DNA of 64,000 nt from Eledone cirrhosa (Eukaryota), in NCBI GenBank assembly GCA_964016885.1, contig OZ024754.1, forward strand, positions 17,298,001 to 17,362,000, given 5' to 3'. Below, piece after piece: positions 674 to 61,583 of this stretch. Positions within the stretch are counted from its first letter, which is position 1. Every line of letters starts with the position of its first letter. A model generated the notes under the pieces. That model saw only the letters and a program-made list of their open reading frames with translations, was not told the DNA's origin and searched no databases. Made by a program: the position numbers and the translations under genes.

Positions 674-713
674 CCACTGACGATGTTGCAGATGTGCAAC
701 GAAAGATTTATGT
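674..713 (+). ncRNA. Hammerhead-like motif (degenerate; related copy at 7771-7810 +)
   Basis: CTGACGA-T-GTTGCA-gatg-TGCAAC-GAAA; related copy CTGATGA-T-GTTG..CAAC-GAAAGAAC; stem I weak. Confidence 0.55.
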
Positions 714-914
714 AAACTATATATATATGTGTTTGTCTATATTGTATCTGTATTATTTTTGACCGCCGGTCAGTCAATGGCAACATTGAGGACCGAGTAA
801 GTTAGATCGCAGATATATATATATAAAAGACAGCGAGAAGCGAAAACCAACCAAACAGTGAGTGTGTTCTGTTATTAATTCTGGCAATATTACGCAAATA
901 TGACCCTCCCCAAA

Positions 915-2063
915 TATAGATATATAGATATATATATATGTATAAATATATATGTATATATATATGTATAAATATATATGTATATATATATATATGTTTA
1001 TATATGTTTATATATATGTATATATGTATATATAAATATATATATGTTTATATATATGTATATATGTATATATATATATGTGTGTGTATGCACATATGTA
1101 TATATATATATGTATATATTTATATATATATGTATATATATATGTATATATATATATATGTATATGTATATATGTATATATATGTATATGTATATACGTA
1201 TATATGTATATATATATATATGTATATATATATATATGTATATGTATATATGTATATATATATATGTGTATATATATATACGTATATATGTATATATATA
1301 GATATGTATATATGTATATATATGTATATGTATATATATATGTATATATTTATGTATATCTATATATGTATATATATATATATGTATATATATGTATATA
1401 TATGTATATATATATGTATATGTATATATGTATATGTACATATATATGTGTGTACATATATATATGTGTATATATATGTGTGTACATATATATATGTGTA
1501 TATATATGTATATATATATATATTTATAGGAATAACCAAATAGTGCTTAGAAATACATTGTTTTATTAGCTAACAGTGTTTCATCCATACAGGCAGGAAT
1601 CTTCAGAGCCTATAAACATGAGTATATCAGTAGTTGCATGCTCCATCGAGCTGCGTCATATATATGTATATATATATATATTAGTATATATATATATATA
1701 TATATATATATATATATATATATATATATATATATGTGTGTGTGTGTGTGTGTGTGTGTGTGTGTGTATATATATATATGTATATATATATAAATATATA
1801 TATATGTGTGTGTATATATATAAATATATATATATATATGTATATATATATATATATGTGTATATATATATATGTATATATATATATATATGTATATATA
1901 TATATATGTGTATATATATATGTATATATATATATGTATATATATATATATGTATATATATGTAAATATATATATGTATATATATATATATATATATATA
2001 TATATAAATATATATATATATATATATATATATATATATATATATAAATATATATGTATATAT
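915..2063. repeat. (TA)n / (TATG)n / (TG)n microsatellite; representative of dozens of such tracts across the window
   Basis: Direct dinucleotide repeats; similar tracts e.g. 15650-16550, 17077-17457, 19480-20138, 27810-28328, 33268-33750, 50926-51362, 53769-54080. Confidence 0.98.
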
Positions 2064-2335
2064 ATCATCATCATCATCATCATAAACACAGTACTTCCGC
2101 ATTTCCCTGCTTGCAAGGGTTGTACGGGTCCTATTCAGCACAGCATCTCTCCACTTGTCACGGTCTTTCGTCATCTCCTCGGCGAGTTTCAGCGATCTGA
2201 GGTCTGCTCTCACCACCTGCGCCCATTTATTTCGTGGTCTACCTCTACTGCATCTTCCTTCTACTGGGATTTCCTGGCACTTCTTTACCCAGCGGTCCGC
2301 AGTGGGACATTCCATTTCTGCAGGCCTTTGCTCCC
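2064..2335 (-). mobile_element. 5'-truncated RTE-group LINE 3' end with (GAT)n tail
   Basis: Encodes [31 protein letters not shown]...; same family as 41100-41352; (ATC)n at 2064-2083. Confidence 0.85.
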
Positions 2336-2337
2336 GA

Positions 2338-57545: not shown

Positions 57546-58790
57546 AATGCCTCAACAGCATTAAGTGCTTTATTAAACAGTGTTATTCTAGCAACATACT
57601 TTTGATGGGAGACTTTAAACAACCCTGTGTTGATTGGTCTACAAACAGTTTGAAACCAGGCACTCCCACCTCAACCACTGACAAAGAAGCAGTAGAGTCA
57701 CTTCTCGACTTTATGAATGAGTTTTTCTTGTCCCAACCTGTCCTTGCACTAACAAGGCACCAGAAGAACATTTTAGACCTAGTGTTTAGTAACCACACTA
57801 ACACTATACATAATATTACAGTGGAAAAAAACCTTCTCTCAGACCATGACATGGTTCTTTGTAACCTGAGATTCCACCAGTCGAAAGCTAATCCTAGTGA
57901 CCTATTTCCAGCCCACCCATTTGATAACATGGATCTCTATAATGCCAACTGGGATGCAACCATGAACGAGCTATTAGATGTTGACTGGGCTTTTACGCAT
58001 GCACACATCTCCACCAACATCAAAACATCTTGGCAGATCTTTGTAGACACTGTCACAAATATATGTGCAAAAAACACCCCACCAAGACCTGTGAACAAAA
58101 CTAAGTGCAGTATCCCACAAAACAGAAAAACTATTATCAGAAAAATAAAAAGAACAAACAAAAAAATTAACACACTAAAATACTGCCAACAGCAACACAC
58201 ACATTCAACAGCTATCGCCCTGCTTGAATCAAAAAATATAACCTCCAATAATGCATGAAGACCATCATCAATAACCAAAGAACAGATGAAGAGAAATGGG
58301 TCATTGAGAAAATCAAACTCAACCCCAATGTGTTCTTTTCATTTGCTAAAAAACACAAGGTCACTGTCCCCACTGTTGTGTGAGATACTGCAGAAACAAT
58401 ATTGCTCTGTTTTCAGCAATCCTGATATCGCCGATCTGGGCCGTATCAGTGATGTTAATCCCCAACACACTATATCGGACATAACGTTTGGCGCCCCTGA
58501 TGTCTTAGTGACAATAAACGAAATTAAACACAATTCAGCAGTAGGCCCCGATAGGTTCGCTGCTTGTGTCCTGAAGGTGTGTCGACACAAACTTGCATCT
58601 CCTCTTGCTAATCTGTGGAGGAACTCACTCGACACTGGCTATATTCCTGAAAACTTTCTGACCCAGTCCGTTGTCCCAGTTTTCAAAAAGGGAAACAAGT
58701 CCCTTGCAGTGAACTACCGCCCGATCCCACTCACCTCTCATATCATCAAGGTATTTGAGAGGGTGGTGAGATCATGAATAACCCACTTTC
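57545..58790 (+). mobile_element. Internal fragment of the same CR1/L2-group LINE family as 10874-15170
   Basis: Highly similar to the reverse complement of ~12230-13475. Confidence 0.9.
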
Positions 58791-58822
58791 CTTATGTTAG
58801 AAATCATTATTTTATTCTACAA

Positions 58823-59013
58823 CAGATCTGCCAACCTCTAAAAACCTCTAAAAATCTAAACGGAGAGTACCATGAAAAAAAGTGCCCCAAAATGTGGAGA
58901 AATGAGGCAAAATTGGGAGATAATGAAAGCATTTTTACAAGAGAAGACATCTCTCACCCATGCCAAAGTGGGTGTGAGAGTTCCCCGCCGGACAGGGGGA
59001 GTTGACAGGTCTG
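58823..59013. mobile_element. Short TIR element (MITE) with 6-bp TSD CTACAA
   Basis: CAGATCTGCCAAC ... GTTGACAGGTCTG (11/13 inverted match); CTACAA on both sides. Confidence 0.65.
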
Positions 59014-60843
59014 CTACAATTAATTTTGTTTTCTAACCGTAATATAAATAGAATTATATCCGTAAGCTTATTAGTTTTGACTTGCTAACTAAAAGTATTT
59101 ATCAATAGACTTCGATTTATTGCTCTGTAATTTCAATAAAGTTTGCTAAATATCATTTGATAGTTCTCTGTTATATTTGCTCATTTGAAATGATACATTT
59201 CCCAAATATAATTCTAATATGTTATGTTGGTGTCACTTTGATTGTGTTCAATATTAAATCTCTCTTGTAACAATTGAAATTGAAATGTAAAAATCTTGTT
59301 TATTCTAAACATAACCAAAAAAGTTGAACACTATTTCAATATCCTGTTAGTATTCATGTCTAATATATACATCAACAGTTGATTACTACCTCTTTCAATT
59401 TGTATTAATGCATAGTTTTTTTCTTTTACTCTTTGTTTAAAAGCAGATTAAAGAGCATAAATTAAATGTTGTATAGTAAACTCGTTTCTGAATTATTGTA
59501 TTGTCTTATATGTAGATTCGCAGGGCGGCAGAGTCGTTAGAATGTCGAATGCTTTGTGGTATTGGTTCTGACTCTCTGAGTTCAAATCCCGTCGAGGTCA
59601 ACTTTGTCTTTCATCCTTTCAACGTTGATAAAAAAAGTACCAGTCAAGTACTGAGGTCGATTTTTCTTCTATACCTCTTTCTCCCTTTCATTCTCTCTCT
59701 ATCCTTCTCGGGAAGAACTTTGCTGTGTTCAGACCTGGAGAGGAGGTACGCATTCTGTGTTGAATACATAGGACATATCTTACCTTCAACCCCATACGAC
59801 CCGGGGTGAGGGTAGACCTCGGCTCTACCTTTTTCCTATTTACAAACTAAGATAGAGGAAACCCCAAGCATACTTAGGTAGAAGTAGAAATTTTTTCTTC
59901 TTTTCTTCTTTTCTTCTTTCTTCATTAGTTACACACTCTAATTACACTTAGGTGGATCTTTACGCTATTATATTCTGTTTCCATTTTTCCTTAGATTAAC
60001 CCTAGTATTTTCACTCCTGTTAAATATACATACCACATACGGTCGAACACATGCCGGGGGGGGGGGGGTTGTATCATTATGGAAGATAATTGTTTCTACT
60101 TTGGGAACAAGGCCAGCAATTATCCAGTGAATTACTGGTACTTTATTTTATCGACCCCGTAAGGATGAAAGGCAAAGTTAACCTCGGCGGGATTTGAACT
60201 CAGATCATAAAGGGAGGTAACTCTATGCTTCAAGGCATGGCGTCCGACCCTCTACCGATACTGCCAATCCAAGATAATATTGATATATTACTACATTGAA
60301 GTGCTGTTCTAGTGTATTAGAGTAACTAATAACTTAATTTTATTAATTAAGAATTTAGAATTAAATTATATTTGCTTTGCTCCTTAGCCAATGTTAGACC
60401 TGGCATACTCATATTAACTCTACAATATTCCTTCTTTCTCATCGGTTCTTCCCCCCTTTAGAGATAGCTGTAAAGAATTCTCTCTTAACGCATGACCGAC
60501 CTAGCATCCACAGGTCAGAATGTCATCTTCCTCCCTCCCCTTTGTTCTACAGGCAAGTTCGGACCACACCCACCACCCGCCGCTATGAAGGAATTTAACT
60601 ATGTATATGACATCCCAAAATCTTTGACCACTCCCCGTGACAGAAAAGAAAAACAACATTTTTTAGAATTGTTTGATATTATACTACTGCTACGTTTTTA
60701 TTACATGCCCATATATGGATTGTACCCCTTGATAAGTTCAGCTAGATTACTACCGTCCTAACACTACTGGGTTAGTTCATATCTAGCTGTCGAAATGGCC
60801 GGAGCTCAGTCGTCAGAGTCCTGACTATTTTCATATATATATA

Positions 60844-61583
60844 TAAATGTAATCTGAGTTTTTCGAATATTGATAATAATATTCGATTCGTTTGCAATTG
60901 TGCAAACAGCCTCTTTTATAAGCCATGTCGGAAGAATGAGCCCCTCATTCTCGCTCTTGTGTTGGCATGCAGTCCGATCAGTCACTGTATATTTCACAAA
61001 ATATATATTTTCACTAGCTCTGACAGTTGGCAGGTGAACAGTGAACTGCACTGATAAAGGGTAATACCCAGAAACATTAGTTTCTGAAAATCTGTTTACA
61101 TGCAAACACAAGAGCAATATTATTATTAATATTCGAAAACCTCAAATTACATTTATTGTTTTCAGCCATGTAGAGCGATAACTAGTAGTTACTTATTTGA
61201 ATATGGCAAAGCCGGCCATTAATCGCTCGTATACATGAAACTGACTGGCCTATCTGCTGATATACACATCAGGCCGATCAGTCACTGTATATTTTAGAAA
61301 ATATCAGAAAAATATTTCAGAAAAATATTTTCGCTCGCTCTGACAGTTGGCAGGTAAGCAGTAAACTGCACTGATGAAGGGTAATACCCAGAAACATTAG
61401 TGTCTGCCGTTCTGTTTGCATGCCAACATAAGAGCGAAATTGAGGGGTTCATTGTACTGACATGGCTTATAAAAGAGGCTGTTTGCATAATTGCAAACGA
61501 ATCAAATATTATTATTAATATCCGAAAAACTCAGATTACATTTATTGTATTCAGCCATGTACAGCGATAACTAGTTGTTATAT
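60844..61583 (+). mobile_element. Non-coding HHR element: inverted piece plus two tandem copies
   Basis: 60844-60970 is the reverse complement of 61418-61546; 60974-61190 repeats 61274-61580 with an internal deletion. Confidence 0.8.
61368..61407 (+). ncRNA. Type-I hammerhead motif (degenerate tandem copy 61048-61087)
   Basis: GCA-CTGATGA-A-GGGT-aat-ACCC-A-GAAA-CA-ttag-TG-TC-TGC. Confidence 0.75.

Follow-up and report, generated by a model that had tools for sequence, protein, structure and literature searches.

Which self-cleaving RNAs, if any, populate a repeat-rich stretch of a cephalopod genome, and how are they wired? We address this question for 64,000 nucleotides of Eledone cirrhosa DNA (assembly GCA_964016885.1, contig OZ024754.1, positions 17,298,001 to 17,362,000, forward strand; hereafter the window, whose own coordinates we use), made up of (TA)n tracts interspersed with pieces of retroelements and lying in a 3.0-Gb genome. 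A sequence-only reading had proposed that its non-coding modules carry a radiation of hammerhead ribozymes (HHRs) of Penelope-like elements (PLEs). The sites that it cited are indeed type I motifs, but five sites that it had overlooked have their blocks in a different order and are pseudoknotted. With a probability of roughly 70%, we read the window as a (TA)n nest of PLEs with type I motifs at their 3' ends, together with five permuted, predicted self-cleaving modules related to Naiads, a group of PLEs. The new part is these five motifs, which are well supported as structures and predicted as enzymes.

Five motifs with a permuted block order

Five CUGAYGA words in the window (16833, 17015, 19377, 21321 and 32169) have no usable downstream GAAA or stem I partner, and no type I alternative lies within 200 nt of any of the five sites. 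In an alignment of the sites the missing blocks lie upstream, in the order cleavage site, GAAA, CUGANGA: a stem III strand, the NUH triplet and a stem I strand (block S) precede GAAA and the second stem III strand (block G), which in turn precede the second stem I strand and CUGANGA (block C). Three of the copies (A, B and C; Table 1) differ from one another in stem I on both strands. A descriptor of the S-G-C order gave four matches in the window, one of them spurious (4739), and none in 100 shuffles; the order C-S-G gave no match in the window, and in two permuted regions scanned with Rfam no HHR model matched. The module carrying copy A is 85–93% identical over 350 nt to many genomic copies, and the second family, at 19281–19390, has an intact relative at a genomic locus (L036). 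A 375-nt head at 21594–21966, considered as part of a permuted module, proved to be a separate repeat, 94–98% identical across many genomic loci and unrelated to the HHR modules.

Pairing and conservation across the genome

The S-G-C pattern has 12,207 matches in the genome and its reversed control none; two sister patterns gave 725 matches (control 0) and 129 matches (control 1). Among 100 sampled instances, 81 had the S block and fell into 34 clusters at 90% identity; six truncated or chimeric clusters were left out and the other 28 representatives aligned. Six helices were recognized: stems I and III, an arm beyond stem III, helix Y between the strand before G12 and an upstream strand, helix X between the strand after A9 and a strand further upstream, and hairpin H between the X and Y strands. 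Mutual information, calculated with no model given, placed pairs of stem I, H, the bend arm, Y, X and stem III within the top 19 column pairs. In the 28 representatives, 88.2% of the cells assigned to helices are paired (76.3% when shuffled, 30–50% in slid controls), and 23 of 33 pairs, including six of six in stem I, have changed on both sides. A tree-aware count on 27 rows (one misaligned row was dropped) yielded 25 compensatory branch changes, distributed as 12 in the arm, six in stem I, four in H, two in Y, one in X and none in stem III, compared with a null mean of 1.4 and maximum of 9; none of 5000 null replicates reached the observed value. Helix Y is 83% and stem III 97% paired. Seventeen clusters of less than 80% identity, a coral one included, keep the layout after removal of one spurious window row of 18.

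At individual positions, the core varies as that of a hammerhead would. The base at the cleavage site is G in 62 copies, compared with A, C or U in 12,207; freeing G5 in the pattern added only 147 matches, and all four bases occur at N7. Spacings are tight, at 16–18 nt in 110 and at 21 or 24 nt in 90 of 116 instances. The remaining core letters were fixed by the search patterns, and their invariance in the alignment carries no evidence. On these grounds we are highly confident that the permuted motif represents a real conserved hammerhead-like structure. In metagenomes, 14 of 120 loci found with the coral motif hold the whole fold and 106 do not. These 14 loci (L150, L161, L176 and 11 others) have the coral-type permuted motif on contigs without a Naiad open reading frame (ORF), and because of this, non-autonomous carriers probably exist in corals, too.

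Fold model and predicted self-cleavage

The S-G-C motif likely folds as a double pseudoknot. Stems I and III would form as in any HHR, and helix Y would stand in for stem II, with its 5' strand taken from upstream. The chain would be opened between A9 and position 10.1; one free base after A9 would lead into helix X, a clamp that closes the gap and, with hairpin H, completes a modeled four-way junction. Stem III would run on through a kink-turn-like bend, which would return the CUGANGA strand to stem I. Between stem III and the arm lie a 3-nt bulge and G-A pairs. The kink-turn consensus is a 3-nt bulge followed by tandem G-A and A-G pairs, which the observed bulge and pairs appear to resemble. 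At the bend, G97 and A58 are each present in 26 of 27 rows, and position 57 is G in 19 and U in seven.

Self-cleavage of this structure is predicted and, judged from sequence, a good deal more probable than its absence. Read-through RNA of tandem modules would be cut into units, each acting as a monomer; no dimer would be needed because stem III is stable. The cut ends would stay joined through about 20 bp (in X, Y, III and the arm of the bend), which would favor religation to a circle, and a PLE reverse transcriptase (RT)–endonuclease (EN) would use this RNA as its template at nicked (TA)n, with the start on the 3' side of the ribozyme. Such an internal start has been shown in vitro for the RT of a Poseidon element (PMC11167929; here and below, statements on published work refer to the passages of texts and supplements that were covered).

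Probable relation to Naiads

The permuted modules have no coding sequence and measure about 530 nt; their 3' ends are fixed and their 5' ends ragged. One genomic locus (L028) has a 531-nt unit in tandem. Among 54 copies, the 3' ends lie 64–68 nt (15 copies) or 110–117 nt (17 copies) after the predicted cut. In the supplement of Craig et al. 2021 (PMC8557442), compared by eye throughout, Naiad_Obim and Naiad_Ovul close with the same 3' layout, hairpin loop and bend included, and this layout recurs in three Acropora consensus ends and in four from the cubozoan, Clytia and ostracod parts. Naiad_Esco and Naiad_Bfor show a weaker form of it. Among the nematode parts (File S5, parts 13–16), six ends have a clean C-S-G order in which all three stems (I, II, III) are paired, and the bivalve and spider passages show no such motif; the comparison covered part of the ends in this file of 54 consensus sequences, including the passages around core words. 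Naiads had been reported without canonical HHRs, with only the strings 'HHR_core' and 'HHR_half_core' given (Craig et al. 2021, PMC8557442). The five window modules likely mark non-autonomous Naiad-type elements, and descent of the permuted modules from the Naiad lineage appears very probable. That Naiads across animal phyla carry non-circularly permuted HHRs, opened at A9/stem II in cnidarians, ostracods and cephalopods (in the last with a kink-turn) and of intact type-CSG in nematodes, has in our estimate slightly better than an even chance.

Within the E. cirrhosa genome, one Naiad RT remnant has an intact S-G-C motif about 0.4 kb beyond it, in the same orientation (locus L335), and decayed U3-A8 versions follow eight distinct Naiad remnant places, seven with an S block. 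A strict scan of the 3' flanks of 20 Naiad remnants had found no motif, and the decayed ones emerged only on a motif-guided second look. The layout after the remnants is a second one in the same genome, in which stem II is not assignable. The remnants (L334:2475-2621, L311:4137-4283 on the minus strand, L335 and others) mostly have a U3-A8 core, with a hairpin between the S and G blocks.

The permuted modules of the window contain no ORF and are thus devoid of the Naiad protein, with its N-terminal GIY-YIG, CxC, DKA and C-terminal RT; we class them as non-autonomous and Naiad-type, not as Naiads. Coding partners were sought in several ways. Among the GIY-YIG loci, the 30 best and another 20 with long ORFs or tandem arrangement have C-terminal ENs only, where the EN is readable, and the 150 best EN representatives include no N-terminal-EN protein. 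Two RT-motif patterns gave no genome matches and a third gave three remnants, a protein database search with a Naiad remnant gave no match, and the metagenome loci hold no Naiad ORF. At L062, a permuted motif has a Nematis-like ORF 2 kb upstream, which was rejected as partner, as it ends in a type I family with a (TA)n tract in between. The modules may be mobilized by a Naiad that escaped these searches or, in trans, by a different clade of PLEs. The permuted modules are young (about 1% change at G5) and the Naiad RT matches are all old remnants.

Alternative explanations

The alternative that survives best, although we regard it as unlikely, is that the motif is a conserved fold of HHR origin that is no longer or only weakly catalytic and serves as a recognition or start signal for a PLE RT, or as a kink-turn protein-binding site. 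Such a signal would fit the amplification of a type I family with a changed core (U4A, see below) to 14,406 copies, the poor cleavage of PLE minimal HHRs in vitro (PMC4209133), the absence of a direct stem II and the set distances between the motif and the 3' ends of the elements. It fits less well that the chemically needed positions are fixed (G5, non-G at 17 and the A15.1-U16.1 pair) while N7, linkers and stems drift, and that the Naiad-linked family has a compensated U3-A8 core.

Considerably less probable is that two copies, as a dimer or tandem unit, combine their S, G and C blocks in trans to build an ordinary junction with another stem II, X and Y being alternative pairings. Copies often occur in tandem or as inverted pairs, and cleavage of PLE HHR dimers has been published (PMC4209133, PMC6765202), but the stem partners covary inside each copy across short, tight spacings, and a dimer would supply no stem II since no copy has a stem II strand after A9. 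Still more remote is a box C/D snoRNA-like or other kink-turn RNA whose likeness to the HHR core is due to chance: UGAUGA and CUGA words occur, and copy A has weak Rfam C/D matches (25.2 and 15 bits; E 0.11 and 4.5), yet these scores are far under the cut-offs of 65 and 85, N7 varies to C, A and G and so breaks box C, and in sequence-unrelated families stem I abuts NUH and C3 and stem III begins exactly at the A15.1-U16.1 pair. Finally, coincidental pairing within one young repeat family, which might be suspected because the 12,207 matches are for the greater part close relatives, with about 1% change at G5, can be practically dismissed, being contradicted by the pairing counts, the layout shared across families (17 clusters at <80% identity) and the tree-aware test (25 against 1.4).

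A predicted self-cleaving motif of Naiad descent has to be weighed against a number of observations that speak against it. Regarding the fold, the four-way junction remains a model because the block C of published SGC ribozymes is not found here; in 109 of 116 instances, no more than 2 bp form directly between the strand after A9 and the one before G12. Helix X is weaker than every other helix (one compensatory branch, 83% paired), stem III has no single-branch double change in the main alignment and covaries between families only, and the pair beside G12 is standard in only eight of 25 rows and mostly a mismatch. The kink-turn is imperfect, with the second G-A pair in 19 of 27 rows, and some families (such as that at L082) have a plain bulge instead. 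The nested folding energy of the motif is unremarkable (z of −0.6 to −1.4). Regarding catalysis, inserted copies span the cut site and therefore derive from uncut or rejoined RNA, and the 14,406 copies of the U4A family imply that amplification can tolerate a core change, so that conservation need not mean catalysis. Regarding descent, the 142 Naiad RT matches in the genome are all decayed remnants, the motif after them belongs to another family than that of the window, none of 20 permuted-motif loci has a Naiad ORF within 5 kb upstream, and no intact mobilizing Naiad was found in the genome although the permuted modules are young.

Type I hammerheads and their host elements

For the type I motifs, the sequence-only reading proved largely accurate. 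The ten sites that it cited (20843, 51513, 46667, 61368, 47609, 33885, 4875, 48979, 23937 and 10518) each have a type I HHR fold, as does its start site at 674, and its estimate of about a dozen families and more than 20 copies is borne out by a census based on descriptor and homology (30 copies in 12 families). It had also suggested a descriptor search with shuffled controls, in which the perfect-core motif is far denser in the window than in shuffles: a strict type I descriptor gave seven matches compared with 0.02–0.05 in 100 dinucleotide shuffles, and a relaxed one with a C3-G8 core, which permits bulges and an extra base after A9, gave 14 compared with a mean of 0.13 and never more than one per shuffle in 60 block shuffles. 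Taken by itself, the U3-A8 descriptor does not exceed chance in the window (two matches; mean of 0.38 and maximum of 4 in shuffles), and U3-A8 sites were accepted because their copies recur and sit at PLE 3' ends. Other 3-8 core pairs (G-C, A-U, U-G and C-A) gave no descriptor matches in the window. A 27-bp AT-rich tandem array elsewhere in the genome (L281:1300-2230) produces many false U3-A8 HHR matches and calls for caution with relaxed descriptors.

The claimed CUGANGA core is present at most of the cited sites but not at 10518 and 23937, which represent the two type I families with a U3-A8 core. The motifs at 46667 and 61368 have a mismatch at 10.1-11.1, and the 27377 family and its copies have A in place of U4. 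At least six of the 30 copies are damaged. Rfam reports no HHR in the window at gathering threshold; among the best 150 of 481 rows, its HH9 model reaches 38.6 and 37.7 bits at three sites, with a cut-off of 52. A self-duplex of stem III is favorable in seven of nine type I families tested and not in two, and a long stable stem III is found in the 46741, 23942 and 27377 families.

The proposed (TA)n niche was confirmed: the median distance from a motif to (TA)5+ is 135 nt, compared with 325 nt for background, and 26 of 28 listed motifs, but only 48% of background positions, are within 300 nt. The description of the carriers as non-coding modules does not apply to all of them: two HHRs are in the pseudo-long terminal repeats (pLTRs) of a Hydra-clade PLE, and two flank a Neptune-type EN ORF. 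The former element is assigned to the Hydra clade by its motifs (RWR, DKT, CxCX5C, CxxC and CxH, with a C-terminal EN), its pLTR HHRs and its (TA)n flank; relative to the clade definition (RWK, DKT, CxCX5C, CxxC, CxH) it has RWR in place of RWK. Pfam did not recognize the Hydra RT and EN, and the best named homologues of the longest PLE ORF in the window are from Argonauta. The clade names Neptune and Nematis are presumptive, assigned from zinc-finger motifs. The U3-A8 motif of the 10522 family also terminates five of 20 other GIY-YIG loci in the genome, and the 47648 family terminates a Nematis-like PLE ORF elsewhere (L062). The pattern of the U4A family matches 14,406 places in the genome, and each of the 100 matches listed has A for U4. 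The family represents either a tolerated core variant or a sign of amplification without cleavage.

In 1.02 Mb of genomic loci, which were chosen by motif or PLE searches so that densities are not genome averages, 59 distinct type I matches form 28 clusters, compared with none in one shuffle. The suggested radiation of PLE HHR families is thus real, comprising autonomous and non-autonomous elements genome-wide, but is of a kind already described: minimal stems, the extra base, U3-A8 cores, inverted pairs and large radiations have all been published, and the type I collection is therefore one of PLE-type HHRs of known kind.

Table 1 Positions of permuted motifs, type I HHRs (as predicted from their folds) and host elements in the window
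Feature	Position	Strand	Details
Permuted motif, copy A	16743..16843	+	Predicted cut after A16789
Copy A, upstream helices	16743-46; 16747-68; 16769-73	+	X 5' strand (imperfect here); hairpin H; Y 5' strand
Copy A, middle	16775-83; 16784-88; 16790-95	+	Kink-turn arm; stem III 3' strand; stem I 3' strand
Copy A, downstream	16801-05; 16806-09; 16827-32; 16833-39	+	Y 3' strand; GAAA; stem I 5' strand; CUGACGA
5'-truncated non-coding module carrying copy A	16550..16903	+	Ends in (TA)n
Permuted motif, copy B	16925..17026	+	Predicted cut after 16971; both strands of stem I differ from copy A
Permuted motif, copy C	32079..32182	+	Predicted cut after 32125; third stem I sequence
Permuted motif, second family	19281..19390	+	Predicted cut after 19335; 1.1-2.1 mismatch
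Inverted partner of the 19281-19390 motif	21308..21417	-	Predicted cut ~21363
Hydra-clade PLE	33750..38546	-	Two pLTRs of 941-946 nt, 929/939 aligned bases identical
Hydra-clade PLE, RT-EN ORF	37562-35347	-	Frameshifted
Hydra-clade PLE, type I HHRs	Cores 37798 and 33942	-	One per pLTR
Inverted pair of 3' ends, same Hydra family	4513..5150		HHR cores 4739 (-) and 4883 (+)
Neptune-type PLE fragment	7854..10629	+	GIY-YIG ORF 8255-8989
Neptune-type PLE HHRs, U3-A8	10522 (+)		Inverted copy 7963 (-); third, damaged copy 45980
Inverted non-coding module	20138..21111		Minimal type I HHRs with palindromic stem III, 20466 (-) and 20850 (+)
Third copy of the 20138..21111 module HHR	53440	+	
Type I HHR	47609..47653	-	Same family as at the end of the L062 Nematis-like ORF; other copies 5491 (-), 5623 (+, G12A), 48511 (+)
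U3-A8 type I HHR, long stems II and III	23937..24020	+	Inverted copy 22228 (-)
Damaged relative of the 23937..24020 HHR	~60728	+	
Type I-like motif, U4 to A	27325..27388	-	Copies 6146 (+), 41981 (-), 28441 (-), 27122 (+)
Single-copy type I HHR	51513..51556	-	Core 51550
Type I HHR, 7-bp stem III, long stem II	46667..46748	-	Core 46741
Type I HHR related to the Hydra pLTR family	48977..49042	-	Core 49034
Type I HHR	61365..61411	+	Core 61371; damaged copy 61051
Type I HHR, extra base after A9, weak stem I	672..715	+	Core 677; relative 7774
Type I HHR	1563..1615	-	Core 1606
Damaged copies, base changes or deletion	61051; 5623; 45980		G8A; G12A; one-base deletion
Damaged copies, other	28441; 27122; ~60728		C3U; truncated; stem I broken

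Other repeats in the window

A 35-bp tandem array of 31 copies (22514–23599) lies between the inverted long U3-A8 HHRs at 22228 and 23942, and a 61-bp array of 27 copies with 95% matches occupies 43425–45071. An inverted repeat at 4003–4446 contains a tRNA-like segment (Rfam tRNA, 38.1 bits, 4111–4175, minus strand), with related pieces at 41530–41828, and is probably a tRNA-derived short interspersed element. The many Rfam microRNA matches in the window were rejected as artefacts of TA tracts and inverted repeats; a near-perfect 227-nt palindrome at 5444–5670 with microRNA-precursor scores is formed by two PLE 3' ends in inverted orientation. More broken Hydra-type ORF fragments occur at 24612–25530 (+), 61993–63142 (+) and 2535–2918 (−), and broken fragments of long interspersed elements with RVT_1 or endonuclease domains, some nested or inverted, at 11458–14348, 17459–18738, 38563–41325 and 54560–58790.

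Implications

Craig et al. 2021 (PMC8557442) left open why Naiads, which rank among the most abundant retroelements in marine invertebrates, thrive without the HHR of other PLEs, and considered that HHRs may parasitize PLEs. The self-cutting RNA reported missing from Naiads is likely this permuted HHR-like RNA. If so, Naiads would no longer be an exception, and self-cleavage would again count as a general step in the transposition of PLEs. Non-circular permutation would move from rare environmental RNAs to animal genomes, with the first such HHRs in eukaryotic chromosomes, and the layout would break the 'block C' that was assumed to be indivisible, adding a seventh natural wiring beyond the six-block scheme. 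A self-ligating monomeric ribozyme would then drive a parasite family of >12,000 copies that has outlived its own autonomous element. Descriptors of types I, II and III as well as Rfam overlook this large class of putative genomic ribozymes.

Comparison with known systems

The openly accessible literature that was searched mentions no permuted HHR in Naiads or in any animal genome. Within the passages covered, PMC13725137 only cites Eckert and Forgia for variant layouts, PMC3088659 lists U3-A8 and U4C variants with no 'U4A' string, and PMC10162972 has no 'extra helix' text.

The type I motifs of the window resemble the minimal HHRs of PLEs in their pLTR or 3' position, extra base after A9, U3-A8 variants and inverted pairs, and in part also in a short palindromic stem III; they differ from published ones only as new families, among them the abundant U4A family. 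Minimal stems, the extra base, U3-A8 cores and inverted pairs were described by Cervera and de la Pena 2014 (PMC4209133), 16 families of type I HHRs with >6000 copies between them are known from one coral (Cervera and de la Pena 2020, PMC7229834), and Hydra PLEs with canonical HHRs and (TA)n targets include the Octopus family Hydra-1_Obim (PMC8557442).

The permuted modules share with Naiads the insertion into (TA)n, 5' truncation, tandem and inverted copies and two classes of 3' ends, but unlike Naiads have no ORF (PMC8557442). They likewise resemble non-LTR retrozymes in being non-coding tandem units with one ribozyme each that are likely mobilized by PLEs (PMC7229834; 10.64898/2026.07.22.740005), and differ from these in their units of about 530 nt and in carrying a permuted instead of a type I ribozyme; the retrozyme preprint of Li et al. 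2026 (10.64898/2026.07.22.740005) works with type I models.

The closest relatives in layout are the type-SGC and type-CSG HHRs (HRIMA-1), of which those in SGC order cleave in vitro and come from metatranscriptomes, not from genomes of known organisms (Eckert et al. 2023, PMC10085705); that work has only two natural CSG sequences. Like type-SGC, the permuted motif has the S-G-C order, a short link between stem I and the strand that precedes GAAA, a full core and two pseudoknots, as well as a covarying block S and a block G with a paired stem II strand, GAAA and a stem III strand. In type-SGC, however, block C is intact, whereas here CUGANGA is not directly followed by the stem II 5' strand, whose place is taken by a partner upstream. 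The permuted motif further differs in its extra helices X and H, in the kink-turn-like bend in stem III and in its host, an animal retroelement with >12,000 copies. It has the SGC order but is not a strict member of type-SGC.

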